Virus record (IMG/VR): IMGVR_UViG_2690316263_000015
Location: 1 to 32,035 of that record
Strand: one strand, 5' to 3'
DNA from: a virus
Taxonomy: Duplodnaviria; Heunggongvirae; Uroviricota; Caudoviricetes
DNA length: 32,035 nucleotides
The notes under the pieces are model-generated. The model had not been told where the DNA came from and searched no databases. It saw only the letters and a program-made list of their open reading frames with translations. This document shows positions 5,964 through 31,465 of the stretch, piece after piece (the first letter of the stretch is position 1; every line of letters starts with the position of its first letter). Both the position numbers and the translations under genes were made by a program.

Positions 5964-6112
5964 AAAGTGCGCGCCTTGTGCTGGCTGCCATCCTGCTGTT
6001 TCTGGTAGTGGCGGTGGATTTCACCGGACGGCTGATGTCGGTGCTGGCAGATGGTGTGCTGGTGGCGATGGCGCTGGCCGTACTCTGGCCTTTACTGCGT
6101 AAATCTGAATAA
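5960..6112 (+). CDS. small hydrophobic protein (50 aa), hypothetical
   Basis: GTG 5960 overlaps the TerB stop (GTGA). Translation VKSARLVLAAILLFLVVAVDFTGRLMSVLADGVLVAMALAVLWPLLRKSE is almost entirely one or two transmembrane helices. Too short for the ORF track. Confidence 0.3.
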   Translation: MKSARLVLAAILLFLVVAVDFTGRLMSVLADGVLVAMALAVLWPLLRKSE

Positions 6113-6199
6113 CACCACACAAAAGGTATCTGCGGGTGCCTTTGACGGGTGTTTTTTACGGGTCGTTGGTGGCCCTTTTTTATTTACAGGAGAAAAAGT

Positions 6200-6592
6200 A
6201 TGTCTGAACCCTTGTCCGGTTCCGGTACGGCTGCGGCGCTCGGCGGGGCGACGGTATTCGGGCTGTTTACCGGAACGGATTTCGGGATTGTGTTTGGGGC
6301 GTTCGCTGGGGCGTTATTTGTGGCAACGATGCCGCAGGCGCTTTCAGCCTGGCGTGTGGCGGCGCATTTTCTGGTGTCGTTTATCGTTGGCGTGCTGGGT
6401 GCGCATGTGCTGTCAGCCTGGATTGCATCAAAAACAGGTTATGACGGTACATCGGCGGATGCACTGTGTGCGGTGCTGGTGGCGGTGGTGTCGGTGAAGA
6501 TTCTCTCGTTCATCCACCAGCAGGATATTGCATCGCTGGTGTCCGGCCTGTTCTCCCGCCTGCGGGGTGGAGGAGGCGGCAATGTTAAGTAA
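6200..6592 (+). CDS. putative holin (multi-transmembrane lysis protein)
   Basis: ATG 6200 after AGGAG (6188-6192). 130 aa with Gly/Ala-rich hydrophobic segments and a charged C-terminus; two genes upstream of the endolysin. Confidence 0.45.
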   Translation: MSEPLSGSGTAAALGGATVFGLFTGTDFGIVFGAFAGALFVATMPQALSAWRVAAHFLVSFIVGVLGAHVLSAWIASKTGYDGTSADALCAVLVAVVSVKILSFIHQQDIASLVSGLFSRLRGGGGGNVK

Positions 6593-6857
6593 CCTTCCCG
6601 GATTGCTGAATGTGGCGTTATGCACGGTTATCGTGCTGACGCTCTTTTTTTATCGTCGTCGTGATTCCAGACATAAACCGCTGATGTCATGGCTGGCCTG
6701 GTTGCTGATGCTGCTGTATGCCTTTGCGCCCCTCAGCTATCTGTGTGGTCGCCCGTTAGCAACGGGCTGGCTGGAAGTGTTTTTTAATCTGCTGTTCTGC
6801 GTGCTGGTGATACGCGCGCGCGGGAACGTCACAAAAATCTTTCCATTATTGAGGTGA
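6582..6857 (+). CDS. lysis-cassette membrane protein (holin/antiholin-like)
   Basis: ATG 6582 after GGAGGAGG, overlapping the upstream stop. 91 aa with about three hydrophobic helices (LLNVALCTVIVLTLFFY, WLAWLLMLLYAFAPL, VFFNLLFCVLVI). Stop overlaps the endolysin SD. Confidence 0.4.
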   Translation: MLSNLPGLLNVALCTVIVLTLFFYRRRDSRHKPLMSWLAWLLMLLYAFAPLSYLCGRPLATGWLEVFFNLLFCVLVIRARGNVTKIFPLLR

Positions 6858-15839: not shown

Positions 15840-16010
15840 ATGTTTGTGAAACCTGTTAAAGGGCGGTCAGTGCCTGACCCTGCCCGCGGTGACCTTTTGC
15901 CCACCGAAGGGCGAAATGTTGATGAGAACAACTACTGGCTGCGCCGTGAAGCAGCGGGTGATATCCGGCGCGTGAATAAAAAGGTGAACACCGATGACGA
16001 TAAGCTTTAA
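15840..16010 (+). CDS. small protein (56 aa) preceding the sheath gene, hypothetical
   Basis: ATG 15840. Translation MFVKPVKGRSVPDPARGDLLPTEGRNVDENNYWLRREAAGDIRRVNKKVNTDDDKL. Overlaps the sheath start by 17 nt. Not in ORF track. Confidence 0.3.
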   Translation: MFVKPVKGRSVPDPARGDLLPTEGRNVDENNYWLRREAAGDIRRVNKKVNTDDDKL

Positions 16011-17490
16011 CACCATTCCGTCGAATACGCTGGTTCCGCTGTTTTATGCGGAAATGGATAACTCGGCGGCGAATACTGCACAGGACAGCGGGGCATCGTT
16101 GCTGATTGGTCACGCCAATAACGGTGCAGAGATTGTTGCCAACAGTCTGGTGCTGATGCCGTCGGCAGACTATGCACGCCAGATTTGTGGTGCGGGAAGT
16201 CAGCTGGCGCGTATGGTCGAGGCTTATCGCCAGACCGATCCGTTTGGCGAGCTGTATGTGATTGCCGTTCCGGAAGCCACAGGCGCGGCGGCAACGGTTA
16301 CGCTGACGGTGACCGGAGCAGCAACCGAAACCGGCACGGTGAATGTTTATGTGGGACGTACCCGCGTGCAGGCACCGGTGACCAACGGCGATAACGTCAC
16401 GACGATTGCCAGCAGTATCCAGGATGCCATCAATGCCGTTCCGGCCCTGCCGTTTACGGCCTCATCTTCGGCAGGCGTGGTCACGCTGACCGCGCGTCAT
16501 AAGGGGCTTTGCGGGAATGAAATTCCTGTCAGCCTCAATTACTACGGCTTTGGTGGGGGCGAAGTGCTGCCAGCGGGCGTACAGATTGCCGTGGCGACGG
16601 GGAGCGCCGGAACGGGCGCTCCGGTTCTCACCGGTGCGGTGGCTGCAATGGCGGATGAGCCGTTTGATTATATTGGCTTGCCGTTCAACGACACGGCCTC
16701 CGTTAACACGCTGGTGACCGAGATGAACGATACCAGCGGTCGCTGGAGCTATGCGCGTCAGCTGTATGGTCATGTGTATACGGCAAAGATCGGCACGCTG
16801 TCAGAACTGGTGACCGCAGGTGACCAGTTTAACCAGCAGCACATTACCCTGGCGGGATACGAAAAAGACACTCAGACGCCAGCCGACGAGCTGGCGGCAA
16901 GCCGTACCGCCCGCGCAGCGGTGTTTATTCGCAACGATCCGGCACGTCCCACGCAGACCGGTGAGCTGGTGGGTATGCTGCCTGCACCGAAGGGGAAACG
17001 GTTCACGATGACCGAGCAACAGACCCTGCTGTCTCATGGCGTGGCAACGGCGTATGTCGAAAGTGGGGTACTGCGCATTCAGCGTGATGTCACCACGTAC
17101 AGGAAAAACGCTTACGGGGTTGCGGATAACAGCTACCTCGACAGTGAGACGCTGCATACCAGCGCGTATGTACTGCGCAAACTGAAATCCGTCATTACCA
17201 GTAAGTACGGGCGTCACAAGCTTGCCAGTGACGGTACCCGCTTTGGTCCCGGTCAGGCGATTGTCACCCCGGCGGTGATCAAAGGGGAACTGCTGGCAAC
17301 CTACCGTCAGCTTGAGCGTGCGGGGATCGTGGAAAACTACGAACTGTTTAAGCAGTACCTGGTTGTGGAGCGTGATGCCAGCGATCCGAACCGCCTGAAC
17401 ACGCTGTTCCCGCCTGACTATGTTAACCAGTTGCGTGTCTTTGCCGTGGTTAACCAGTTCCGTCTTCAGTATTCAGAGGAGTCTGCATAA
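15994..17490 (+). CDS. contractile tail sheath protein (Mu gpL-like)
   Basis: ATG 15994 after AAGGTG. 498 aa; size and position (before tube and chaperone) typical of myovirus sheath. Confidence 0.85.
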   Translation: MTISFNTIPSNTLVPLFYAEMDNSAANTAQDSGASLLIGHANNGAEIVANSLVLMPSADYARQICGAGSQLARMVEAYRQTDPFGELYVIAVPEATGAAATVTLTVTGAATETGTVNVYVGRTRVQAPVTNGDNVTTIASSIQDAINAVPALPFTASSSAGVVTLTARHKGLCGNEIPVSLNYYGFGGGEVLPAGVQIAVATGSAGTGAPVLTGAVAAMADEPFDYIGLPFNDTASVNTLVTEMNDTSGRWSYARQLYGHVYTAKIGTLSELVTAGDQFNQQHITLAGYEKDTQTPADELAASRTARAAVFIRNDPARPTQTGELVGMLPAPKGKRFTMTEQQTLLSHGVATAYVESGVLRIQRDVTTYRKNAYGVADNSYLDSETLHTSAYVLRKLKSVITSKYGRHKLASDGTRFGPGQAIVTPAVIKGELLATYRQLERAGIVENYELFKQYLVVERDASDPNRLNTLFPPDYVNQLRVFAVVNQFRLQYSEESA

Positions 17491-17846
17491 TGGCCCGTAT
17501 CGGGGGAACCTGTTATTTCAAAATTGACGGTCAGCAGCTATCGCTGACCGGCGGCATTGAGGTGCCCATGAACAGGACGGTCAATGATGACATCATCGGC
17601 CTGGACGGTTCAGTGGACCGCAAGGAAACTCACCGTGCACCTTATGTCAAAGGGACCTTCAAGGTGCCGAAGAATTTTCCGGTGAGCAAAATCACCTCGT
17701 CTGATGAGATGACCATCACTGCCGAGCTGGCGAACGGTCAGGTCTATGTATTGTCGTCCGCCTGGCTGCACGGTGAAGCGAACCATAATGCCGAAGAAGG
17801 CACGGTTGATCTTGAGTTCCACGGTGAAGAAGGGGATTACCAGTGA
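17490..17846 (+). CDS. tail tube protein (Mu gpM-like)
   Basis: 118 aa directly after the sheath gene (TAATG overlap). Confidence 0.7.
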   Translation: MARIGGTCYFKIDGQQLSLTGGIEVPMNRTVNDDIIGLDGSVDRKETHRAPYVKGTFKVPKNFPVSKITSSDEMTITAELANGQVYVLSSAWLHGEANHNAEEGTVDLEFHGEEGDYQ

Positions 17847-18166
17847 TTGAGCTTGTACTTAAAAAACCGATCATCGCCCACAAAGAAACACTGCATGTGC
17901 TGGAAATACGTGAGCCTACGTATGACGAGATTGAGGCGCTGGGGTTCCCTTTCTCTGTTTCGCCTGATGGTGGTATGAAAATGGACAGTCAGGTGGCGCT
18001 GAAATATATCCCGCTTCTGGCCGGGATCCCGCGCTCGTCTGCAGCGCAGATGACGAAGCTGGATATTTTCAAGGCAGGCATGATTGTAATGCGTTTTTTT
18101 ACCGGCTTGGAGACGGAAGAGACCTCCGGAAGCGATTCTACAATGTCGCGTGGTTCTGGAAATTAA
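17843..18166 (+). CDS. tail assembly chaperone (G-like; candidate -1 frameshift site near its 3' end)
   Basis: GTG 17843. 107 aa between tube and tape-measure genes. Slippery T-TTT-TTT at 18094-18100 with the -1 frame open to 18257. Confidence 0.55.
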   Translation: MIELVLKKPIIAHKETLHVLEIREPTYDEIEALGFPFSVSPDGGMKMDSQVALKYIPLLAGIPRSSAAQMTKLDIFKAGMIVMRFFTGLETEETSGSDSTMSRGSGN

Positions 18167-18250
18167 ACCCCCTTGAACTTCGCCGGACGGCTATTTCCCA
18201 CTTTGCTGATCTGGAGGCAGAGGCCGTCCGTATAAATGAGGAGATGAAGC

Positions 18251-20158
18251 ATGGCTGATAATTTTCAGCTGAAAGCCATCATCACCGCCGTTGACAGGCT
18301 ATCCGGCCCGCTTAAAGGTATGCAGCGTCAGCTTAAGGGATTTCAGAAAGAAGTCTCCAGCCTTGCTCTGGGCGCTGCCGGGGCGGGTACTGCAATAATG
18401 GGGGCACTGGTACTCCCTGTAAAATCAGCCATCACCCTTGAATCGAAGATGGCTGATGTCCGCAAAGTGGTGGACGGTCTGGATACGCCGGATGCGTTTA
18501 AGGCCATGACGGAGCAGGTGCGTGACCTGTCAACCGAACTGCCTATGTCGGCGGAAGGTATCGCTGAAATCGTGGCGGCGGGTGGTCAGGCCGGGATTGC
18601 ACGTGATGAACTGATGCAGTTTGCCACTGATGCGGTGAAGATGGGCGTGGCCTTTGATACCACGGCTGAAGAGTCCGGGCAGATGATGGCCCAGTGGCGT
18701 ACTGCGTTTAATATGACGCAGGATGAAGTGGCCGGGCTGGCTGACAAAATCAACTACCTTGGTAATACCGGCCCGGCGAACGCGAAGAAAATCTCCGATA
18801 TTGTTACGCGTATTGGTCCTTTAGGTGGTGTTGCAGGTGTGGCTTCCGGCGAAATCGCGGCAATGGGGGCAACCATTGCCGGGATGGGCGTGGAGTCAGA
18901 AATTGCCGCCACAGGGATCAAGAACTTCATGCTTTCCCTGACCGCGGGAAATTCTGCGACAAAATCGCAGAAACAGGCATTGCGTTTTCTGCGGATCAAT
19001 CCGAAGAAATTAGCTGCTGATATGCAGAAAGATGCCCGGGGCACCATGCTGTCTGTACTGGATGCGATGGCTAAAGTGCCTAAAGAAAAACAGGCAGCTG
19101 TGCTGAATGCCCTGTTCGGGAAAGAGTCTCTGGGCGCGATAGCACCTCTGCTGACTAACCTTGATTTGTTGCGTACCAACTTCAGGCGGGTTGCGGATTC
19201 CCAGCAGTATGGCAGTTCGATGCAGAAGGAATATGCTTCGAGGGCAGCGACGACGGAAAACCAGCTTTTACTTCTGCAAAATCAACTTGATGCCATTTCT
19301 TCCACGCTGGGGGAAACGTTTTTTCCTGAGGTTAATGATGGTCTTGAAGCGGTAAAACCGCTCCTTGAGGAAGTGAGAACGTTTGTCCGTGAAAACCCGG
19401 AGCTCGTTAAGACCATTGCTAAAATCGGTCTGGCCTTACTGACGGTGGGAGCCGCTGCAGGCTCTTTGTCCAGAATTATGAAAGTTCTCGGCGGTGTGAT
19501 GAATATGACGCCTGCTAAGGGGCTGATTGCTCTTCTGGTTGGTGGCGCTTACCTCATTATTGATAACTGGGAAACCGTAGGTCCTGTCATAAAAAAAGTC
19601 TGGCACGTGATGGATGAAACGGCGCAGGCGATGGGGGGATGGGAAACTGTTCTGAAAGCGATTGCCCTGTTTATGGCAACCAAATGGGTTGCTGACGTTA
19701 CCAAATCCATTACCGCAGTGACCAGAGAGATGCGTACGCTGGGGAAGGTATCGGCAGAAACGGGATTGATGGGGAAAGGCCGCGGCTTTATCGGGAAGGC
19801 CGGGGTATATGGTTTTCTGGGAACCCTGATGTATGAGCCGGTTAAAGATACTCTGGAAAGTGTTGTTCCTGAAGATACGGTTAACTGGCTGGATAATAAA
19901 GGGCTGTTTCTGGCTTCAGACTGGACGCCTTTTTTTGATCGTAAAGAGTACGAGCAATATCAGGCCAGCCTGAGTCAGTACAAACCCAATGTTCCGCTGT
20001 TGAATCCATCTTCTTCCATGACACAGCACAGCGAGCTGAAAGTCACGTTCGAGAATGCTCCGCCAGGTATGAAGATAATTGATGTACCGGACAAAGCCGA
20101 TCCCCTGATGAAAATCACGCACGATGTGGGGTATTCCCCTTTTCGTTTTCCACGATAA
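18251..20158 (+). CDS. tail tape measure protein
   Basis: ATG 18251 after GAGGAG. 635 aa, alpha-helical, Ala/Gly-rich with hydrophobic internal segments; canonical position. Confidence 0.85.
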   Translation: MADNFQLKAIITAVDRLSGPLKGMQRQLKGFQKEVSSLALGAAGAGTAIMGALVLPVKSAITLESKMADVRKVVDGLDTPDAFKAMTEQVRDLSTELPMSAEGIAEIVAAGGQAGIARDELMQFATDAVKMGVAFDTTAEESGQMMAQWRTAFNMTQDEVAGLADKINYLGNTGPANAKKISDIVTRIGPLGGVAGVASGEIAAMGATIAGMGVESEIAATGIKNFMLSLTAGNSATKSQKQALRFLRINPKKLAADMQKDARGTMLSVLDAMAKVPKEKQAAVLNALFGKESLGAIAPLLTNLDLLRTNFRRVADSQQYGSSMQKEYASRAATTENQLLLLQNQLDAISSTLGETFFPEVNDGLEAVKPLLEEVRTFVRENPELVKTIAKIGLALLTVGAAAGSLSRIMKVLGGVMNMTPAKGLIALLVGGAYLIIDNWETVGPVIKKVWHVMDETAQAMGGWETVLKAIALFMATKWVADVTKSITAVTREMRTLGKVSAETGLMGKGRGFIGKAGVYGFLGTLMYEPVKDTLESVVPEDTVNWLDNKGLFLASDWTPFFDRKEYEQYQASLSQYKPNVPLLNPSSSMTQHSELKVTFENAPPGMKIIDVPDKADPLMKITHDVGYSPFRFPR

Positions 20159-20182
20159 CGCAGTCCTTTTTGAGGTCAGTCT

Positions 20183-21559
20183 ATGGATTTATCCTCATTT
20201 CCCACCCGACCTTCATTACTTTCGTCGTCTTCAGGCTGGCGTGACAGACTTCAGGACGCGTCATTTCGCGGCGTATCGTTTAAGGTTGAAGAAGAAAGTG
20301 CGGGAACCGGTCGCCGTGTGGAAACACACGAATACCCGAACCGCGACAAACCCTATACCGAAGACCTGGGGAAAATCACTTTCCGCCCGTCCATCACAGC
20401 TTATGTGGTGGGAGATGACTGCTTTGACCAGCGCGATCGCCTGATTGAAGCGCTGAATAAACCCGGTCCCGGCACGCTTGTCCATCCGACTTACGGTGAG
20501 CTGAAAGTCTGTGTTGACGGGGAAGTTCGGGTCAGCACATCGAAGAGTGAAGGGCGTATTGTCCGCTTTGACCTGAAGTTTGTCGAAGCGGGAGAACTCT
20601 CTTACCCCACTTCAGGTGCGGCGACGGCGCAGACGCTGATGTCATCCTGTTCTGCACTGGATGACTGCATCAGTGACAGCTTCAGTGGTTTCAGTATCGA
20701 TGGCGTGGCAGATTTTGTGCAGAACGACGTTATTGGTAATGCCAGCATAATGCTGGGGTATGTTTCTGATACGATGAAAGTGGTGGATTCTGCCGTATCG
20801 GATGCTGCCAGGCTGTTGCAGGGGGATATCTCGGTACTTCTGCCGCCGCCATCGTCAGGCAAAAATTTCGTTGAGCAGGTGCAGAAAATGTGGCGTACCG
20901 GGAAACGCCTTTATGGTAACGCCAGCGACCTGGTCACCATGATCAAAACGCTTTCCGGTGTCAGCCTCGGCAGCGATCTGCAACCGCGCGGCGTCTGGAA
21001 AACGGACAGTAAAACCACCGCCACGGCGACGCAGCAGCGTAACGTGGTTGCCAGCACCCTTCGTACGACCGCAATCAGCGAAGCGGCGTATGCCGTCACA
21101 CGATTGCCTGCGCCAACAACTTCCGCGGTGATGCAGAATGCCACAGTGGGGCAGTCAACAACACCCGCGCAGAGCACCGGCTGGCCTTCTGTCACGCATC
21201 CGGCACTGAACAATGCACCGGCGGTGAAAAACACGGTTGACCTGCCAACGTGGGAAGAACTGACCGACATTCGCGACACACTGAATACGGCAATTGATAA
21301 GGAGTTGTCCCGTACAACCAGTGATGCGCTGTTTCTGGCGCTGCGCCGGGTGAAAGCAGATCTGAATGCGGATATCAACACGCGCCTTGAACAGTCTGCA
21401 CGGATCATTCAGCGCACACCGGATGAGGTTTTACCCGCGCTGGTGCTGGCGGCGACCTGGTTTGATAACGCGGCGCGTGACGCGGACATTATCCGGCGTA
21501 ATGCCATTACGCATCCCGGCTTTGTGCCGGTGATCCCTCTGAAGGTGCCAGTGCAATGA
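20183..21559 (+). CDS. DNA circularisation protein (Mu gpN-like)
   Basis: ATG 20183 after GAGGT. 458 aa; the N-terminal region (RDRLQDASFRGVSFKVEEESAGTGRRVETHEYPNRDKPYTEDLGK) is typical of the Mu N-type domain. Confidence 0.7.
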   Translation: MDLSSFPTRPSLLSSSSGWRDRLQDASFRGVSFKVEEESAGTGRRVETHEYPNRDKPYTEDLGKITFRPSITAYVVGDDCFDQRDRLIEALNKPGPGTLVHPTYGELKVCVDGEVRVSTSKSEGRIVRFDLKFVEAGELSYPTSGAATAQTLMSSCSALDDCISDSFSGFSIDGVADFVQNDVIGNASIMLGYVSDTMKVVDSAVSDAARLLQGDISVLLPPPSSGKNFVEQVQKMWRTGKRLYGNASDLVTMIKTLSGVSLGSDLQPRGVWKTDSKTTATATQQRNVVASTLRTTAISEAAYAVTRLPAPTTSAVMQNATVGQSTTPAQSTGWPSVTHPALNNAPAVKNTVDLPTWEELTDIRDTLNTAIDKELSRTTSDALFLALRRVKADLNADINTRLEQSARIIQRTPDEVLPALVLAATWFDNAARDADIIRRNAITHPGFVPVIPLKVPVQ

Positions 21560-25231: not shown

Positions 25232-26059
25232 ATGCATCGTATAGACACGAAAACCGCGCAGAAGGATAAGTTCGGCGCGGGTAAGAACGGTTTTACCCGT
25301 GGTAACCCCCAGACTGGCACGCCTGCCACCGATCTGGATGATGACTACTTTGACATGTTGCAGGAAGAACTTTGTAGCGTGGTGGAGGCATCCGGTGCCA
25401 GTCTGGAGAAGGCGCGGCACGACCAGCTGCTTACCGCGCTTCGTGCGCTGCTGTTAAGCCGCAAGAATCCGTTTGGCGATATCAAATCGGATGGCACGGT
25501 GAAAACGGCTCTCGAAAACCTTGGTTTGGGAGAAGGTTCAGCATTACCCGTTGGCGTGCCTGTTCCGTGGCCTTCCGCCACTCCGCCAACAGGCTGGCTG
25601 AAATGCAACGGTGCCGCTTTTTCTGCAGAAGAATACCCGGAACTGGCAAAGGCTTACCCGACCAATAAATTGCCTGATTTACGCGGTGAATTTATTCGTG
25701 GCTGGGATGATGGACGTGGAGTGGATGCGGGGCGAGCCTTGCTAAGTCTTCAGGATGACTCTTTTGAAGCTCACAGACATGAGTCCTTTTTTTACGCGGG
25801 TATTTCACGCAATGAAACACCATTAAAAAATCTTCCAAGTTCAGACGAGATGCTGACTTTAAGTTCCACAACTAATGCCTTGTCCCCGGACAGTATTGAT
25901 GCCACCAATTCGTTAATTGGTAATGATGATTACAACTGTCTGATTGAAGGAAATAAAAATAACAAACGAACGGCAACGGGGTTGAGTACCAGTATTGTCG
26001 GTGCAGCAGAGACACGCCCACGTAATATTTCATTTAATTACATTGTGAGGGCTGCATGA
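25232..26059 (+). CDS. tail fibre protein: constant N-terminal part fused to the currently expressed variable C-terminal part with a tail-collar-like receptor-binding region
   Basis: ATG 25232 after GGAG. N-terminus [29 protein letters not shown] typical of Mu S / side-tail-fibre N-termini; collar-like motif [33 protein letters not shown]; crossover site inside the gene at 25509-25534. Confidence 0.8.
25509..25534. repeat. left recombination site of invertible segment (hix/gix-like, 26 bp)
   Basis: CTCTCGAAAACC-TT-GGTTTGGGAGAA resembles Hin/Gin crossover sites and is an imperfect inverted repeat of 27459-27484. Confidence 0.6.
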
Positions 26060-26661
26060 TGTATAACGCCATCTTAAATAATAAATTTATTGCCACAAAG
26101 GCAGGAGAGATTACCGTTTATAACTATGACAGTGAGACACGGGAGTATATTTCTGCATCAATTGAATATCTTGCTGTGGGTGTCGGTATCCCCGCATATT
26201 CCTGTTTAGATGCTCCTGGCACACATAAGGTTGGTTATGCAATCTGCCGTTCGGCAGATTTAAACTCATGGGAATATGTGCCAGACCATCGCGGTGAAGT
26301 TGTCTATAACACCGAAACGGGAGAATCAAAAGAAATCACAGCTCCGTGTGATTACCCTGAAAATACAACCACTATCGTCCCGTTAACGCCATACGATAAA
26401 TGGGATGGTGAGAAATGGGTGACAGATACTGAGGCACAGCATAGTGCCGCAGTAGACGCGGCAGAAGCACAGCGCCAGTCGCTGATTGATGCTGCAATGG
26501 CTTCCATCAGTCTGATTCAACTGAAATTACAGGCCGGGCGGAAGCTGACGCAGGCAGAAACAACCCGACTTAACGCCGTGCTGGATTACATTGACGCGGT
26601 GACGGTAACAGATACCAGCACCGCGCCGGATGTCATCTGGCCTGAACTGCCGGAGGCGTAG
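26056..26661 (+). CDS. tail fibre assembly protein (Tfa)
   Basis: 201 aa, ATGA-coupled to the fibre gene; the C-terminal region ([62 protein letters not shown]) is a typical Tfa chaperone domain. Confidence 0.75.
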
Positions 26662-27076
26662 GCCATTCAATATCGGGGGCTGTTGAAGTATCAACACGCA
26701 TCAGCAGCACACGGTATTTCTTCCATTGGGTGAGAGTTGAAGTTTCTTCATCAGTTGCAATGCCCGCATCAACAGCATCCTGACGCCAGGATATTTCACT
26801 GTCAGCTTTTGCACGAAATGTGGCTTTCATGTTTTCTGCATCTGATATTTTCTGTTCTGGTGAAAGCGGCGGCTCATCAACCCATGCAAGGGCCCCTGAA
26901 ACCATTCCCAGCATTTTTCCTGTTGGCTTATTTCCCCCATTAAATCTGACAGCATCCTCATCGCTGATTTCAATACCATCCTGCGGCCATGTCCCCTCCT
27001 TGATATAACTTTCGTATAGCGCTGCGTTGTAGATTGCATTTTCGGAAGGGCTGTAAACACTTTTAACTTTATTCAT
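26633..27076 (-). CDS. alternative tail fibre assembly protein (Tfa')
   Basis: 147 aa on the minus strand; the C-terminal region (SPEQKISDAENMKATFRAKADSEISWRQDAVDAGIATDEETSTLTQWKKYRVLLMRVD) parallels the Tfa chaperone domain. SD GGGAGA upstream of ATG. Convergent with tfa, 3' ends overlapping 26633-26661. Confidence 0.7.
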   Translation of the reverse strand: MNKVKSVYSPSENAIYNAALYESYIKEGTWPQDGIEISDEDAVRFNGGNKPTGKMLGMVSGALAWVDEPPLSPEQKISDAENMKATFRAKADSEISWRQDAVDAGIATDEETSTLTQWKKYRVLLMRVDTSTAPDIEWPTPPAVQAR

Positions 27077-27080
27077 TCTG

Positions 27081-27458
27081 TTATCTCCCTTTCGCTATAT
27101 AGCAAAGATTAAACCCACCGCTACCTGACATACGGGCTGTAAAACCCGTTCTTGAAGTACCAGTTGAGTTAACTCCATAAGCAGGCATGGTTGTTGGAGA
27201 AAGCAGAGACTCCTGGATATCTGCCATTGTCAGTGTAATTGATTCGACCCGCGCGGGGAAAGGTAGCGGGAAAACAACATTCGTCCCTGTCTGTCCAACG
27301 GGGAAACCGAAAATACCCCATTGTGTAATTACCCCATCCGGCCCCTTACTCCATCCAGATTTAGGATTCGGCCAGTCTGCTGCTCCAGAGTGCCCCGTTG
27401 TAAAACTACTCATATCTGGTACTTGCCCGGTATCCGTTCCGACGTTCCTCGTTGCCGC
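27081..27458 (-). CDS. alternative promoterless tail-fibre C-terminal segment (Sv'-like), expressed only after inversion
   Basis: Minus-strand frame is open from the right crossover site to TAA (27081-27083), 4 nt before tfa'; it shares the crossover-encoded GLGE junction with the fibre gene. The N-terminal 'MMPFARY' part of the ORF-track call lies across the recombination site and is probably not coding. Confidence 0.6.
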   Translation of the reverse strand, partial: AATRNVGTDTGQVPDMSSFTTGHSGAADWPNPKSGWSKGPDGVITQWGIFGFPVGQTGTNVVFPLPFPARVESITLTMADIQESLLSPTTMPAYGVNSTGTSRTGFTARMSGSGGFNLCYIAKGR

Positions 27459-27484
27459 TTCTCCCAAACCAACGTTTATGAAAA
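27459..27484. repeat. right recombination site of invertible segment (hix/gix-like, inverted)
   Basis: Its reverse complement TTTTCATAAACG-TT-GGTTTGGGAGAA matches the left site over the GGTTTGGGAGAA half-site and the central TT. Confidence 0.6.
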
Positions 27485-27538
27485 TGCAGAAATAACGAGC
27501 AAATGGCATCATTCCTGCTTTTGTCAGGGGGATCTACC

Positions 27539-27762: not shown

Positions 27763-29712
27763 TTAATCGTGTTTTGGCCATACTTTCAATGCAATTTCCC
27801 CCAACTTTTTACCCCGCTCCAGGATTTCATCCTCATCCCATTTATCCTTAACTATAAGTGGAATGTTCAGTCGTAGATTGGTGTGGACGATGAGAGCATC
27901 ACGTTTTTTCAGAAATACAGCATTCTGAACAGAACGGTTTACGCTAAGGTTAAGCAAAGTTAGATTTCCCAAAGTAGCTATCGCTTGTTGCCGTTTCCTT
28001 ACCAGTAGCTGTTCAGGGGTAAGATCGGTTCCAGACAGAACAATTTGGTTCAATACCGTAGCATCTGAATTTGTCACCATACGACCATTTTCGAGAGGCC
28101 AACAGGAATACCAACTTTGGGGCATAAGATGATCGATATCGAGATTAGAAAGATTTGGAACATCAGGCTTTTCGGTCTTCACTTGGCGACAAAGTTCTCT
28201 TTCAAGTTCCGTTAACATTGAGCGCATTTTCGGTGCGTCGAGCCTGCCAGGATAAAGTGGAGCATTGATGCAAGCGTTGAGAAATTCTGAGTCACCAGGC
28301 CAACGTGAGGCTTCGCCATTTAAGTTATTGAGGATATTACGTAACTCAACACTGGAAATTTCCGTTTTAGCCAAGTGCCGCAATACATTCATAAATACAT
28401 TGTTGTAATTCTTTGGCGTCAGGCCACATACGGCTCTTCGTACTACGTAGGAGACAAGATCATTATACATGACTGCTTTCTCATCATCAGCGATGTTAGC
28501 TATCGAAATGAACAAAGCAAGCGGATAAAGTGTCGTCACATCATAGTCTGCGATGCGATATCCAAAGTGTGAGATGGGGGTTGTGCCAAAACCATCAACC
28601 AATTCTTTATATTGTAATGCATATTGTTTGAGGCGCTTTACTTGCAGATCTGCTCGTTGTGAAGACAAGTCCTTACTTACATAATCACGATACTCATTGT
28701 AAAGACGAGACAGATCAATTTCACGCTGCCTTTCTGATTGCAATGTCGCATGTACTAGCCACTCCATGCGTGGTTTATTAATACGTCCACGGCGTTGTTT
28801 TTCCGACCAGTATTTATCTTCAAAGCTCTTCCACTCATTTTCATATAATTCAATAGCATTAATATTTTCATGCTCTGCGCACATAAAGATATAGTTGCGA
28901 ATAAGATCCGTAGCATGAAGTTCCGCCCCTCGCCCATTTAATGTTTCAAAAATTATTTGGGCATCATCTTCAGCTTCGAGAAATATGCTTACCAGTTTCA
29001 GATCTGTTAAGACAGCCTCAATTAGAGCTACAGCATTTTCTTGTGGTGAGTGGTTTTCTATTTTAATCCATTTTATAAAGGCTTTAGTAAAAAAACATAA
29101 TGCTTCTAGTGATGGCGGGTGATTAAAACGCTTACGCAACGTACCATGCTGCGTGAAACTATCAGAGAATACGTCCCGGAGATCGTCAATCTTTTCAACA
29201 TTAAAACTTTGAATAAAATGAGTTTGATCCCGAAAAGTTGGCCACAGTTTGAAGCGTTCTACTTCTTTATTTCGCATTGTGTCTTCGTTTGAGTTTTTCA
29301 GGCAAGGCGAAATGAGAGCCTCTAAGCTGGAAAGATCCGTAGCACGTAATGCTAATCGGATGGATGCCAGAACATATTGAAGAGTGGTCAATCGTTGCTG
29401 ACCATCAATAATATGTATGGAATCTACACCTAATAATCCTTTTTTTGATTGAGGTTCCAGTACAACCGCACCAAGGAAATGGGGAGTTGGTTTTGTACCC
29501 GAGAGCCGGGATTGTGCTTTCTCTAGGATATCCTCCAGTAGAGCTGACCATTGGTCTTGCTGAGTCCATACATAGGCACGTTGATAGAATGGAACACAGT
29601 ATTGTCGGCGGTCTTGAAAAAGTTGTTGGACAGTTAGCGTCTCGGATTTCATGGTATACCTGTAAGCGACATTGTACAAAAGTGAGGAGTTAATCTGATT
29701 TAGAACAATCAT
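27763..29712 (-). CDS. DUF262-DUF1524 nuclease, GmrSD-like (type IV modification-dependent restriction candidate)
   Basis: 649-aa minus-strand ORF. N-terminal DUF262 motifs (FYQRAYVWTQ, IIDGQQRLTTL, FETLNGRGAELHATDLIRNY) and C-terminal DUF1524 His-Me finger (DIDHLMPQSW, GNLTLLNLSVNRSVQN). Likely true start at internal ATG 29652 (MKSETL). Gene is AT-rich. Confidence 0.8.
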   Translation of the reverse strand: MIVLNQINSSLLYNVAYRYTMKSETLTVQQLFQDRRQYCVPFYQRAYVWTQQDQWSALLEDILEKAQSRLSGTKPTPHFLGAVVLEPQSKKGLLGVDSIHIIDGQQRLTTLQYVLASIRLALRATDLSSLEALISPCLKNSNEDTMRNKEVERFKLWPTFRDQTHFIQSFNVEKIDDLRDVFSDSFTQHGTLRKRFNHPPSLEALCFFTKAFIKWIKIENHSPQENAVALIEAVLTDLKLVSIFLEAEDDAQIIFETLNGRGAELHATDLIRNYIFMCAEHENINAIELYENEWKSFEDKYWSEKQRRGRINKPRMEWLVHATLQSERQREIDLSRLYNEYRDYVSKDLSSQRADLQVKRLKQYALQYKELVDGFGTTPISHFGYRIADYDVTTLYPLALFISIANIADDEKAVMYNDLVSYVVRRAVCGLTPKNYNNVFMNVLRHLAKTEISSVELRNILNNLNGEASRWPGDSEFLNACINAPLYPGRLDAPKMRSMLTELERELCRQVKTEKPDVPNLSNLDIDHLMPQSWYSCWPLENGRMVTNSDATVLNQIVLSGTDLTPEQLLVRKRQQAIATLGNLTLLNLSVNRSVQNAVFLKKRDALIVHTNLRLNIPLIVKDKWDEDEILERGKKLGEIALKVWPKHD

Positions 29713-30544: not shown

Positions 30545-31465
30545 TTATGATAGACCGTAGTATTTTTTCAGAGCCGCTGTAGCTGCTTGAGTTGCAGCAG
30601 CTATTCCTATGCCCAAAGTACCATGGGCTGCTTTACTCGCAATATTTGCCAACCATTTACTAACAGATTGACCATATTCACCACGTTTGTTAGCTATCGG
30701 GCCATCTTCACCAATAGCAATTTCTAAATCGTTAACATCAGATTTAGGGAACCCCTGAGCTGAGAGAAACTCTTTTAATGACTCAGTGTCGTTTTTTACG
30801 ACGTGGTTATTCACAGAAAATGAGTTTTCATTTCCGAAGTTTATGACAGTATTGTCTCCAAAAATTGAGTTATGGAATAATGAAGACGTGTCGATATTTT
30901 TAAGTTTTTCTGTCATGTTTTTCTCATCTGGTATTTCAGAAACTTGATCAGAAAGTTCAAGTATAAAATCAAGTAGCCGTGACCTGACCTGAGTTAAGAT
31001 GGAAGTAAAGTTATGTAGTGCGATCTCTTTATAACAGCGTGTTAACTCATAGCCTTTATCGATACCTTTGCAGTACTTAACTAACGCGTAATCTAAAGGA
31101 ATTGGCTGCTGAAGAGCATGGCTATCACCAGCATTGGTTACTAGTTCTTCGATTTGACTGATTGAAAGCCTCACATTACTGGTTGTAGCATCTTCATAGT
31201 CATCTTCACTTAGATAGCCAATCGGTAACGGAAAAGCTCTATATAGGCGAACGCCGTTGTTCAGATCTGCAAGAATTCTTGTGCCAACAATTCTATAATC
31301 TGGAAGGGAAACTGAATCAGGATAACCGTTTATCTCATGATTTACCCATGCAGCAAGCTCCTTTTTCCCGATAGAGAAAAGAAGGATCTTCGTTTTTATG
31401 AGAGCATTTGTTGTGCCTTCATCACCAGTACTTAGTATCTGAATGATTTCTTGCAGTTGGTTCAT
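30545..31465 (-). CDS. abortive-infection-like protein (AbiTii-type N-terminal domain suspected)
   Basis: 306-aa minus-strand ORF. N-terminus (LQEIIQILSTGDEGTTNALIKTKILLFSIGKKELAAWVNHEINGY) resembles AbiTii-domain proteins as I recall them; C-terminus has an Ala/Gly-rich amphipathic tail. AT-rich. Family call unverified. Confidence 0.45.
   Translation of the reverse strand: MNQLQEIIQILSTGDEGTTNALIKTKILLFSIGKKELAAWVNHEINGYPDSVSLPDYRIVGTRILADLNNGVRLYRAFPLPIGYLSEDDYEDATTSNVRLSISQIEELVTNAGDSHALQQPIPLDYALVKYCKGIDKGYELTRCYKEIALHNFTSILTQVRSRLLDFILELSDQVSEIPDEKNMTEKLKNIDTSSLFHNSIFGDNTVINFGNENSFSVNNHVVKNDTESLKEFLSAQGFPKSDVNDLEIAIGEDGPIANKRGEYGQSVSKWLANIASKAAHGTLGIGIAAATQAATAALKKYYGLS

Follow-up and report, generated by a model that had tools for sequence, protein, structure and literature searches.

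A predicted programmed −1 ribosomal frameshift in an SfIV/phiP27-like Escherichia coli prophage: the gene for the tail assembly chaperone

Recoded tail chaperones of P2, lambda and Mu and their counterpart in the prophage

The paradigm of frameshifting in tail chaperone genes is reportedly the −1 shift that gives rise to gpG and gpGT of phage lambda, known from the work of Levin in 1993 and of Xu, Hendrix and Duda in 2004. Tailed phages with double-stranded DNA have in common a conserved frameshift located between the genes for the major tail protein and the tape measure, P2 using for this purpose the sequence TTTTTTG (PMC3091744, PMC2628397). The P2 product gpE+E′, encoded in the FETUD tail operon, originates from a −1 frameshift at T TTT TTG (Christie et al. 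2002, as cited in PMC3091744). In lambda, the short and long products are made at a fixed low ratio of about 30:1, with no stimulatory structure needed (PMC5009743), and for gp41 of phage Mu, a −2 frameshift has been reported (PMC5009743, PMC2628397).

The DNA analysed here (the window, i.e. the whole stretch of 32,035 nucleotides) comes from an SfIV/phiP27-like E. coli prophage that combines an HK97-type head with a Mu-type contractile tail. The part of its tail module that is of interest consists of the following features:

17490–17846, + strand: tail tube gene, 118 aa (Pfam PF10618 Tail_tube, E 2.4e-33)
17843–18166, + strand: short chaperone, i.e. the zero-frame product, 107 aa, GTG start (Pfam PF10109 Phage_TAC_7)
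18094–18100, + strand: slippery heptamer T TTT TTT, contained in CGT TTT TTT = R84 F85 F86
18100–18258, + strand: −1 frame extension, 52 codons plus TGA (18256–18258), an open frame read from the sequence
17843–18258, + strand: long chaperone, the predicted trans-frame product of 138 aa, assembled from the zero and −1 frames
18238–18243, + strand: GAGGAG, the Shine-Dalgarno sequence of the tape-measure gene by direct reading, 7 nt upstream of the ATG at 18251
18251–20158, + strand: tape-measure gene, 635 aa (Pfam PF10145, E 6.2e-43; TIGR01760, E 3.7e-97)

The tube gene, having identical coordinates in the PGAP annotation of E. coli LR-46, ends with a TGA (17844–17846) that overlaps the chaperone start. 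[quoted passage not shown] The same product is assigned to phrog_166 ‘tail protein’ (E 1.3e-25) and bears the RefSeq label ‘phage tail assembly protein’.

The closest paradigm for this gene is gpE/gpE+E′ of P2 rather than G/GT of lambda, both of them belonging to one conserved class. P2 E is also a member of PF10109 (E 1.4e-12), and in both proteins the domain ends at the shift site—at residue 86 in the window and 85 in P2, corresponding to profile position 78—the site in the window being in register with the annotated P2 −1 site in the alignments. Both heptamers are of the T6N type positioned over x-F-F/L codons, T6T in the window and T6G in P2 (G-F-L), and in both cases the zero frame is terminated soon after the site, the zero-frame tails counting 21 and 6 aa, respectively. 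The −1 extensions are 52 and 57 aa long, and in the window as in P2 (gene T), the extension stop follows the A of the tape-measure ATG by 5 nt. Both also have their genes in the order sheath-tube-chaperone-tape measure.

The two systems differ in the rest of the tail module, which is Mu-like in the window and unlike that of P2, and the overall identity of the window's product to that of P2 is about 15%. Further differences concern the extension itself: the family PF06528 (Phage_P2_GpE) recognizes P2 E′ with 76.3 bits, but neither the extension from the window nor six homologous extensions, even at E 10, and the PHROG is 32181 in the window versus 1756 and 6416 in P2. When a profile of 20 fused sequences was compared with P2 E+E′ using hhalign, a probability of 70.5% was obtained (E 3.9e-5, 119 columns, shift sites in register); a profile of 7 sequences gave 14.9% (E 0.0018), and the extension alone aligned weakly with P2 E′ (E 0.036).

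Lambda G/GT resembles the locus in logic and position, the chaperone gene lying just upstream of the tape measure with the heptamer near its 3′ end, and gpGT is a long form with a common N-terminus, as predicted for the long chaperone of the window. It is unlike the window in having a non-contractile tail, another slippery sequence and another protein family. With regard to Mu, the tail module of the window is of the Mu type (DUF2635, sheath, Tail_tube PF10618, DNA circulation protein, gpP, gp45 and gp46), its chaperone occupying the same slot as gp41. Mu gp41, however, belongs to PF23746 (E 9.1e-35) and phrog_508 and contains no zero-frame X XXY YYZ heptamer, whereas the protein from the window matches PF10109 only and its gene does contain one. 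A Mu-like −2 shift, leading to the +1 frame, was also considered and rejected, since that frame stops about 70 nt past the T run, well before the tape-measure gene, the conserved extension being that of the −1 frame. With a chaperone and a recoding site of the P2-E type in Mu-like surroundings, the tail module is therefore mosaic in this respect.

The slippery site and the −1 frame

The T-TTT-TTT run, which the original prediction had placed over the codons R-F-F of the zero frame about 70 nt before the chaperone stop, is indeed present in the X XXY YYZ register of that frame, as CG[T TTT TTT], with 66 nt from its end to the last base of the stop codon. The −1 frame, expected to remain open for about 52 codons, comprises exactly 52 when read from TAC at 18100: YRLGDGRDLRKRFYNVAWFWKLNPLELRRTAISHFADLEAEAVRINEEMKHG. 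A correction applies to its stop codon, given originally as TGA at 18255–18257; that triplet reads CTG, the TGA occupying positions 18256–18258, and the feature thus ends at 18258. The overlap with the tape-measure start holds, the first 8 nt of that gene (ATGGCTGA, with the ATG at 18251–18253) being shared with the end of the extension, and the GAGGAG sequence is embedded in the final extension codons (…N-E-E-M…). The short chaperone is the counterpart of P2 gpE and lambda gpG; the long one, corresponding to P2 gpE+E′ and lambda gpGT, would consist of the zero-frame residues 1–86 and the 52 residues of the −1 frame, the junction reading ...MRFF/YRLG....

Judged from the sequence, it is highly probable that the chaperone gene of this SfIV/phiP27-like prophage undergoes a programmed −1 ribosomal frameshift. 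The majority of ribosomes would read CGU UUU UUU ACC and proceed to the stop at 18164–18166, releasing the short chaperone of 107 aa, while a minority, holding two tRNA-Phe on UUU-UUU, would move back by one base, each tRNA re-pairing with UUU in the new frame. The slipped ribosomes would continue with UAC CGG and the rest of the 52 further codons up to UGA at 18256–18258; the resulting long chaperone of 138 aa would possess the N-terminal domain of the short form and a new C-terminal domain, ending within the start of the tape-measure gene. The extension would be accessible only to ribosomes arriving from the chaperone gene. By analogy with lambda G/GT and P2 E/E+E′, the rare slip would deliver the two proteins in a fixed ratio; the same two phages suggest that the common domain may bind the tape-measure protein and the extension may recruit the tube protein, both chaperone forms presumably being needed for tail assembly and absent from the virion.

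Concerning stimulatory signals, single-sequence folds of segments of 80 nt and 201 nt containing the site were not more stable than their shuffles (z 0.66 and 0.04), and RNAalifold applied to two homologue sets yielded no pairs or just one 4-bp stem 50 nt away. A downstream stimulatory structure, which the original prediction had considered worth looking for, was thus not found by either approach; its absence is usual for this class, frameshifting in tailed phages apparently requiring no stimulator (PMC5009743). Upstream of the heptamer, inspection by eye revealed nothing convincing as a Shine-Dalgarno-like element. Because neither type of signal was found, the heptamer appears to act alone; since, in addition, U UUU UUU has been reported as less shift-prone than A AAA AAG in E. 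coli (PMC5009743), the efficiency of the shift at this site may be low.

The substitutions in the extension are concentrated at the third codon positions of the −1 frame. Past the zero-frame stop, they are distributed over codon positions 1/2/3 as 2/1/15 in the comparison with phiP27; for the non-overlapping part of the extension, the respective values are 4/2/13 against ST64B and 4/1/15 against Mixta, and for all pairs together 262/145/453. This pattern indicates that the −1 frame downstream of the zero-frame stop is under protein-coding selection. The start-less −1 frame with such a signature supports the conserved G/GT-type frameshift proposed originally, the class being the same and the nearest model being P2 E/E+E′.

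Conservation of the site and competing readings

The conservation of the heptamer in homologues, suggested earlier as a check, was evident in all 31 distinct homologous contexts, all of them exhibiting T6[T/C]: positions one to six are T without exception (100%), the seventh base being T in 14 and C in 17. The first Phe codon of the site is TTT throughout, and the codon preceding it—GGT, AAT, CGT, AGT or GTT, i.e. five different amino acids—ends with T in every context. By comparison with the invariant T6, the neighbouring third-codon positions share just 29–65% identity. [quoted passage not shown]

The same 138-aa protein could be obtained by transcriptional slippage, if RNA polymerase added one U on the T7 run in some of the mRNAs. 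The site is, in fact, a homopolymer of seven T's, at which one added U would give exactly ...R-F-F-Y-R...; productive realignment at homopolymers is known (PMC5009743), and single-ORF fused variants carrying genomic T8 (L013) or T5 (P0001, 137 aa) show the run to be prone to DNA-level slippage or sequencing error. This explanation is nonetheless quite improbable, the run being reduced to only six T's in the 17 T6C contexts as well as in P2 (T6G), for which the annotation gives a translational frameshift. Moreover, evolution has kept the X XXY YYZ register, down to the third base of a preceding codon that otherwise varies; this is the requirement of tandem tRNA re-pairing, and it goes beyond the length of the run alone.

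The heptamer with a −1 extension of 50–57 aa was found in all eight related loci from phage and E. coli records, the phages being phiP27, ST64B, F1055, SfV, AH07, EPP-1 and YeP1. At the level of different bacterial species, 34 of the 37 loci possess the heptamer and a 50–57-aa extension showing the motif [FY]..A.[FY]W[KR].NP, the range reaching as far as uncultured proteobacteria and a Methylococcales MAG; among viral contigs, the two-frame arrangement with heptamer and extension was seen in 78 of 80. An interruption of the −1 frame in close homologues, which would have refuted the original prediction, is therefore not observed. The arrangement persists in lineages only 31–40% identical to the product from the window, the zero-frame tail behind the heptamer varying from 3 to 27 aa among the homologues. 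It should be pointed out that for ST64B, a ‘frameshift mutation in a tail assembly gene’ is on record in the literature; its identity with the present site was considered and rejected, as it is located in SB21 (PMC3853940), the ST64B chaperone site being intact.

The above counts also bear on the possibility of a broken gene, the real chaperone being a single ORF of 138 aa, from which the window would have lost 1 nt of the T run owing to a mutation or a sequencing error. Fused single-ORF versions do occur in databases—besides P0001 and L013 mentioned above, the S. flexneri variant P0007 is found on 661 contigs, with an indel downstream—but they have arisen from differing, unrelated indels, in the way that assembly errors or secondary mutations would produce them. 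The two frames, by contrast, are retained in nearly all of the viral contigs and species-level loci, in all fetched phage isolates of the group and down to the lowest identities given above, and a broken gene is accordingly regarded as very unlikely.

It is similarly hard to believe that the −1 ORF could be an independent small gene, translated from its own internal start into a protein of ~50–60 aa. A ‘hypothetical protein’ of 60 aa has been annotated over the chaperone end in phage vB_EcoM-689R6 (SfV type), and phrog_32181 is made up of such annotated ORFs; the −1 frame of the extension in the window, however, offers no ATG, GTG or TTG start giving an ORF of at least 20 aa, and the conservation of that frame sets in directly at the heptamer, whose presence would be left unexplained.

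For the chance background, the genes of the window were represented by 35 + strand ORFs. The −1 frame behind the 33 heptamers found in their zero frames stays open for a median of 13 codons, and in no more than 6 of the 33 cases does it extend beyond the zero-frame stop. A mere coincidence of a T run with an open −1 frame, the 85-nt stretch before the tape measure being a non-coding spacer, has a negligible probability. Zero-frame slippery heptamers are indeed common in the window, but their median continuation is short, and the third-position bias in the ‘spacer’, together with the deep conservation of both heptamer and extension, excludes a neutral spacer. As a separate observation, four of the six long continuations are found in a single ORF (6051–6497) that lacks a Pfam match and overlaps a holin gene of another frame.

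The extension in databases and genome annotations

The peptides of the extension include FYNVAWFWK and TAISHFADLEAEAVR. Its only family match is phrog_32181 (E 4.5e-6), the function of which is unknown, searches against Pfam (also at E 10) and NCBIfam giving no match. A phmmer search against 1.84 billion representatives returned only 7 matches at E ≤ 0.001, which, save for one unrelated repetitive protein, are ORFs from this very locus, either chimeric or mis-called, so that no connection with PF06528 emerges. The extension is nearly missing from protein databases because gene callers cannot see it. Among solved structures, no relative was found, and the AlphaFold model of the natural fused variant P0001, calculated without an alignment, had a mean pLDDT of 54.8, too poor for a fold search. 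A more far-reaching reading, itself rather doubtful, would see in the extension a partner-binding domain family of its own, serving tail tubes of the Mu type, which would have either replaced P2 E′ or diverged from it beyond recognition; on T7 variants, slippage of RNA polymerase may add to that of the ribosome, in which case the T7 and T6C lineages would differ in their long:short ratio.

On the + strand, no promoter-like or terminator-like sites were detected in the region 17400–18400, including the 85-nt ‘gap’ before the tape-measure gene. The 138-aa product is absent from the annotations of SfIV, phiP27, ST64B, SfV, F1055, AH07, EPP-1, YeP1, two vB_EcoM phages and PGAP-annotated E. coli; in the SfIV genome paper, ORF-12 is a hypothetical protein, and a full-text literature search found no paper describing the frameshift in SfIV, SfV, phiP27 or ST64B. 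The locus represents an ordinary, as yet unannotated case of a well-known recoding class and adds nothing new on the mechanism. Its main value lies in annotation, a probably essential tail protein being missing from all the records inspected. Recognition of the site also helps in judging prophage integrity: probable defects can be flagged in the fused form from S. flexneri, in variants with a T5 or T8 run and in decayed endosymbiont copies. DNA similar to the tube-chaperone-tape-measure stretch is carried by 1081 of the 5426 complete E. coli genomes, in 211 of them over at least 80% of the stretch.

Tail module and slippery site of the prophage

The prophage that makes up the window belongs to E. 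coli/Shigella. Around the proposed frameshift site it is 99.8% identical to a prophage in E. coli LR-46, 99.2% identical to Shigella phage SfIV, and 74–77% identical to phiP27 and ST64B. On the + strand, a contractile tail module of the Mu type comes after a head module of the HK97 type:

15994–17490, +, sheath
17490–17846, +, tube (PF10618)
17843–18166, +, tail assembly chaperone ORF, 107 aa (PF10109, phrog_166)
18251–20158, +, tape measure (PF10145, TIGR01760)
3' of the tape measure, +, DNA circulation protein, gpP, gp45 and further baseplate genes

The 107-aa ORF is identified as the tail assembly chaperone by its profile matches, scoring 32.1 bits (cut-off 25) with PF10109, 'Phage tail assembly chaperone proteins, E, or 41 or 14', and E 1.3e-25 with phrog_166. 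Within it, TTTTTTT at bases 18094–18100 forms a zero-frame X XXY YYZ heptamer, read as CG[T] TTT TTT (R84 F85 F86). The next codon after a −1 slip is TAC at 18100, from which exactly 52 codons are open (YRLGDGRDLRKRFYNVAWFWKLNPLELRRTAISHFADLEAEAVRINEEMKHG), the extension stopping at TGA 18256–18258 in a region overlapping the tape-measure start codon at 18251 (ATGGCTGA). The Shine-Dalgarno sequence of the tape measure, GAGGAG (18238–18243), is embedded in the extension's final codons, and the predicted fused chaperone has 138 aa; the +1 frame after the T run is closed. The original prediction of a −1 programmed frameshift here, with its R-F-F heptamer, about 52 open codons and a stop overlapping the tape-measure start, is correct save that the TGA had been placed one base too early, at 18255–18257.

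Tail chaperone frameshifts are a textbook recoding class, of which the window site is an ordinary, unannotated member. None of the phage/E. coli records inspected annotates the long product, correct copies of the extension are essentially lacking from protein databases, and the SfIV genome paper calls ORF-12 a hypothetical protein.

Conservation and coding character of the −1 frame

The heptamer was compared over 31 distinct homologous contexts, a check that the original prediction had suggested. Its first six T's are the same in all of them, and the seventh base is T in 14 and C in 17; the flanking third-codon positions show only 29–65% identity. The first Phe codon is TTT in all 31, and the codon preceding Phe-Phe encodes G, N, R, S or V, always as GGT, AAT, CGT, AGT or GTT. 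RNA polymerase slippage on the T7 run would yield the same protein, but it is less parsimonious, since more than half of the distinct contexts, and P2 as well, have only six T's and it is the codon register that is conserved.

A −1 extension of 52–53 aa ending on the tape-measure start is found, with its frame uninterrupted, in every related phage/E. coli record compared (SfIV, E. coli LR-46, phiP27, ST64B, F1055, SfV, AH07, EPP-1 and YeP1). It is likewise present in 78 of 80 viral contigs and, at 50–57 aa, in 34 of the 37 loci found on one-genome-per-species contigs, extending to a Methylococcales MAG and an uncultured proteobacterium. The three exceptions (L098, L106 and L111), of which an Arsenophonus endosymbiont accounts for two and the MAG of a 'Candidatus Pantoea' symbiont ('Ca. 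Pantoea bathycoeliae') for the third, are the only species-level loci with a broken chaperone or extension frame; their chaperone frame is broken at further places, consistent with decaying prophages, all three coming from insect-symbiont genomes. The zero-frame tail past the site is poorly conserved (3 to 27 aa), and the extension retains the motif [FY]..A.[FY]W[KR].NP..L plus a C-terminal A.RI. A single chaperone gene that has been broken is contradicted by this near-universal two-frame arrangement. A small gene initiated independently in the −1 frame is contradicted by the missing start codon, as no ATG, GTG or TTG there gives even a 20-aa ORF; a scan of the + strand of 17400–18400, the 85-nt 'gap' included, found neither promoter-like nor terminator-like sites.

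Substitutions were counted past the zero-frame stop, in the part that can be coding in the −1 frame alone.

Substitutions at −1 frame codon positions 1/2/3
Window vs phiP27: 2/1/15
Window vs ST64B: 4/2/13
Window vs a Mixta prophage: 4/1/15
All pairs, eight sequences: 262/145/453

This codon-position bias (chi-square p 2e-37, only indicative because the pairs are non-independent) places the −1 frame under protein-coding selection and, together with the invariant heptamer, excludes a chance T run with an open frame. Such comparative evidence is a stronger argument than heptamer counts within the window. There, 33 zero-frame heptamers occur in the 35 + strand ORFs counted as its genes, the median length of their −1 continuations being 13 codons; no more than 6 of the 33 run beyond the zero-frame stop, four of them in ORF 6051–6497, which has no Pfam match and overlaps a holin gene in another frame.

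It should be mentioned that genomically fused chaperone alleles also exist (S. flexneri proteins P0007, P0003 and P0004, as well as P0001, L013:1501-1908 and L014), one S. flexneri form occurring on 661 contigs. In the S. flexneri fusion, an indel downstream of the heptamer joins the zero-frame tail (...RFFTQSETGSTSG) to the −1 frame (KRLYNVAWFW...); a T5 run (P0001) or a T8 run (L013) occurs in less common variants. A fused allele would have a long-form-like protein as its sole product, and such alleles may be signs of defective prophages or of sequencing errors in the homopolymer. Concerning ST64B, its chaperone has both heptamer and extension intact; the published 'frameshift mutation in a tail assembly gene' behind its defectiveness was considered for chaperone sb15 and rejected, being located in SB21 (PMC3853940).

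Relation to P2, Mu and lambda, and the proposed mechanism

The P2 record annotates E (91 aa), E+E' as a joined CDS and a 'site of -1 translational frameshift'. This site, T TTT TTG at G-F-L, lies 21 nt before the zero-frame stop, and the 57-aa extension stops 5 nt after the A of the T-gene ATG, the same geometry as in the window; in both chaperones the PF10109 match runs to profile position 78 of 79 and stops right at the shift site. Aligned with P2 E+E', a 20-sequence fused-product profile gave an hhalign probability of 70.5% (E 3.9e-5), spanning the two parts and keeping their shift sites aligned, whereas a 7-sequence profile reached only 14.9%. The extension alone did not align significantly with P2 E' (E 0.036) and, unlike P2 E', has no match to PF06528; its match is to phrog_32181, a family of unknown function whose members include the −1 ORF of an SfV-type phage, there called as a small gene in its own right. 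The locus would thus work like P2 E/E+E', on the strength of the shared PF10109 N-domain family and the shared site. The tail module of Mu otherwise resembles that of the window, but its chaperone differs (PF23746, phrog_508), gp41 having no zero-frame X XXY YYZ heptamer and reportedly using a −2 shift.

In the best-supported reading, two tRNA-Phe would slip in tandem by −1 on U UUU UUU. E. coli has a single tRNA-Phe (anticodon GAA) decoding both UUU and UUC, which fits the T6T and T6C versions of the site. The original prediction had proposed looking for a downstream stimulatory structure; no conserved structure was found, the folds being no stabler than shuffles (z 0.66 and 0.04) and an alifold of homologues showing nothing close to the site. 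This agrees with the statement that certain tailed phages shift without a stimulator, inefficiently yet importantly, and with the modest shifting reported for U UUU UUU in E. coli (PMC5009743). The −1 frameshift product is very likely made. If the locus behaves like lambda G/GT (PMC5009743), the domain common to both products would bind the tape-measure protein, leaving recruitment of the tube protein to the extension.

Other features of the window

A second zero-frame heptamer, C CCT TTT at 20137–20143, precedes the tape-measure stop by 15 nt. Its −1 frame stays open for 33 codons, to 86 nt beyond that stop, and enters the beginning of the DNA-circulation gene; ORF 20124–20444, which overlaps it, has no Pfam match, and the arrangement is probably due to chance.

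Region 25232–27512 looks like an invertible host-range cassette of the Mu G-segment type, with a 20-nt inverted repeat, 95% complementary, at 25516–25535 and 27458–27477. No invertase ORF adjoining it was found in the window; LR-46 has a recombinase gene at the place corresponding to the cassette flank. Two likely defence genes, absent from the otherwise collinear LR-46 prophage, lie just past the tail-fibre genes near the right end:

25232–26059, +, tail-fibre gene holding one repeat arm
26056–26661, +, and 26633–27076, −, fibre-assembly genes between the arms
27081–27512, −, oppositely oriented fibre C-terminus ORF holding the other arm
27763–29712, −, GmrSD-type restriction endonuclease, likely anti-phage defence (PF03235 + PF07510)
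30545–31465, −, AbiTii-domain protein, likely anti-phage defence (PF18864)

Finally, ORF 6051–6497 (148 aa) is probably spurious; the ORF it overlaps, 6149–6592, encodes a Phage_holin_8 protein. A further holin-like gene (Phage_holin_3_7) comes next at 6528–6857, and two holin-family genes seem to be present in the lysis cassette.
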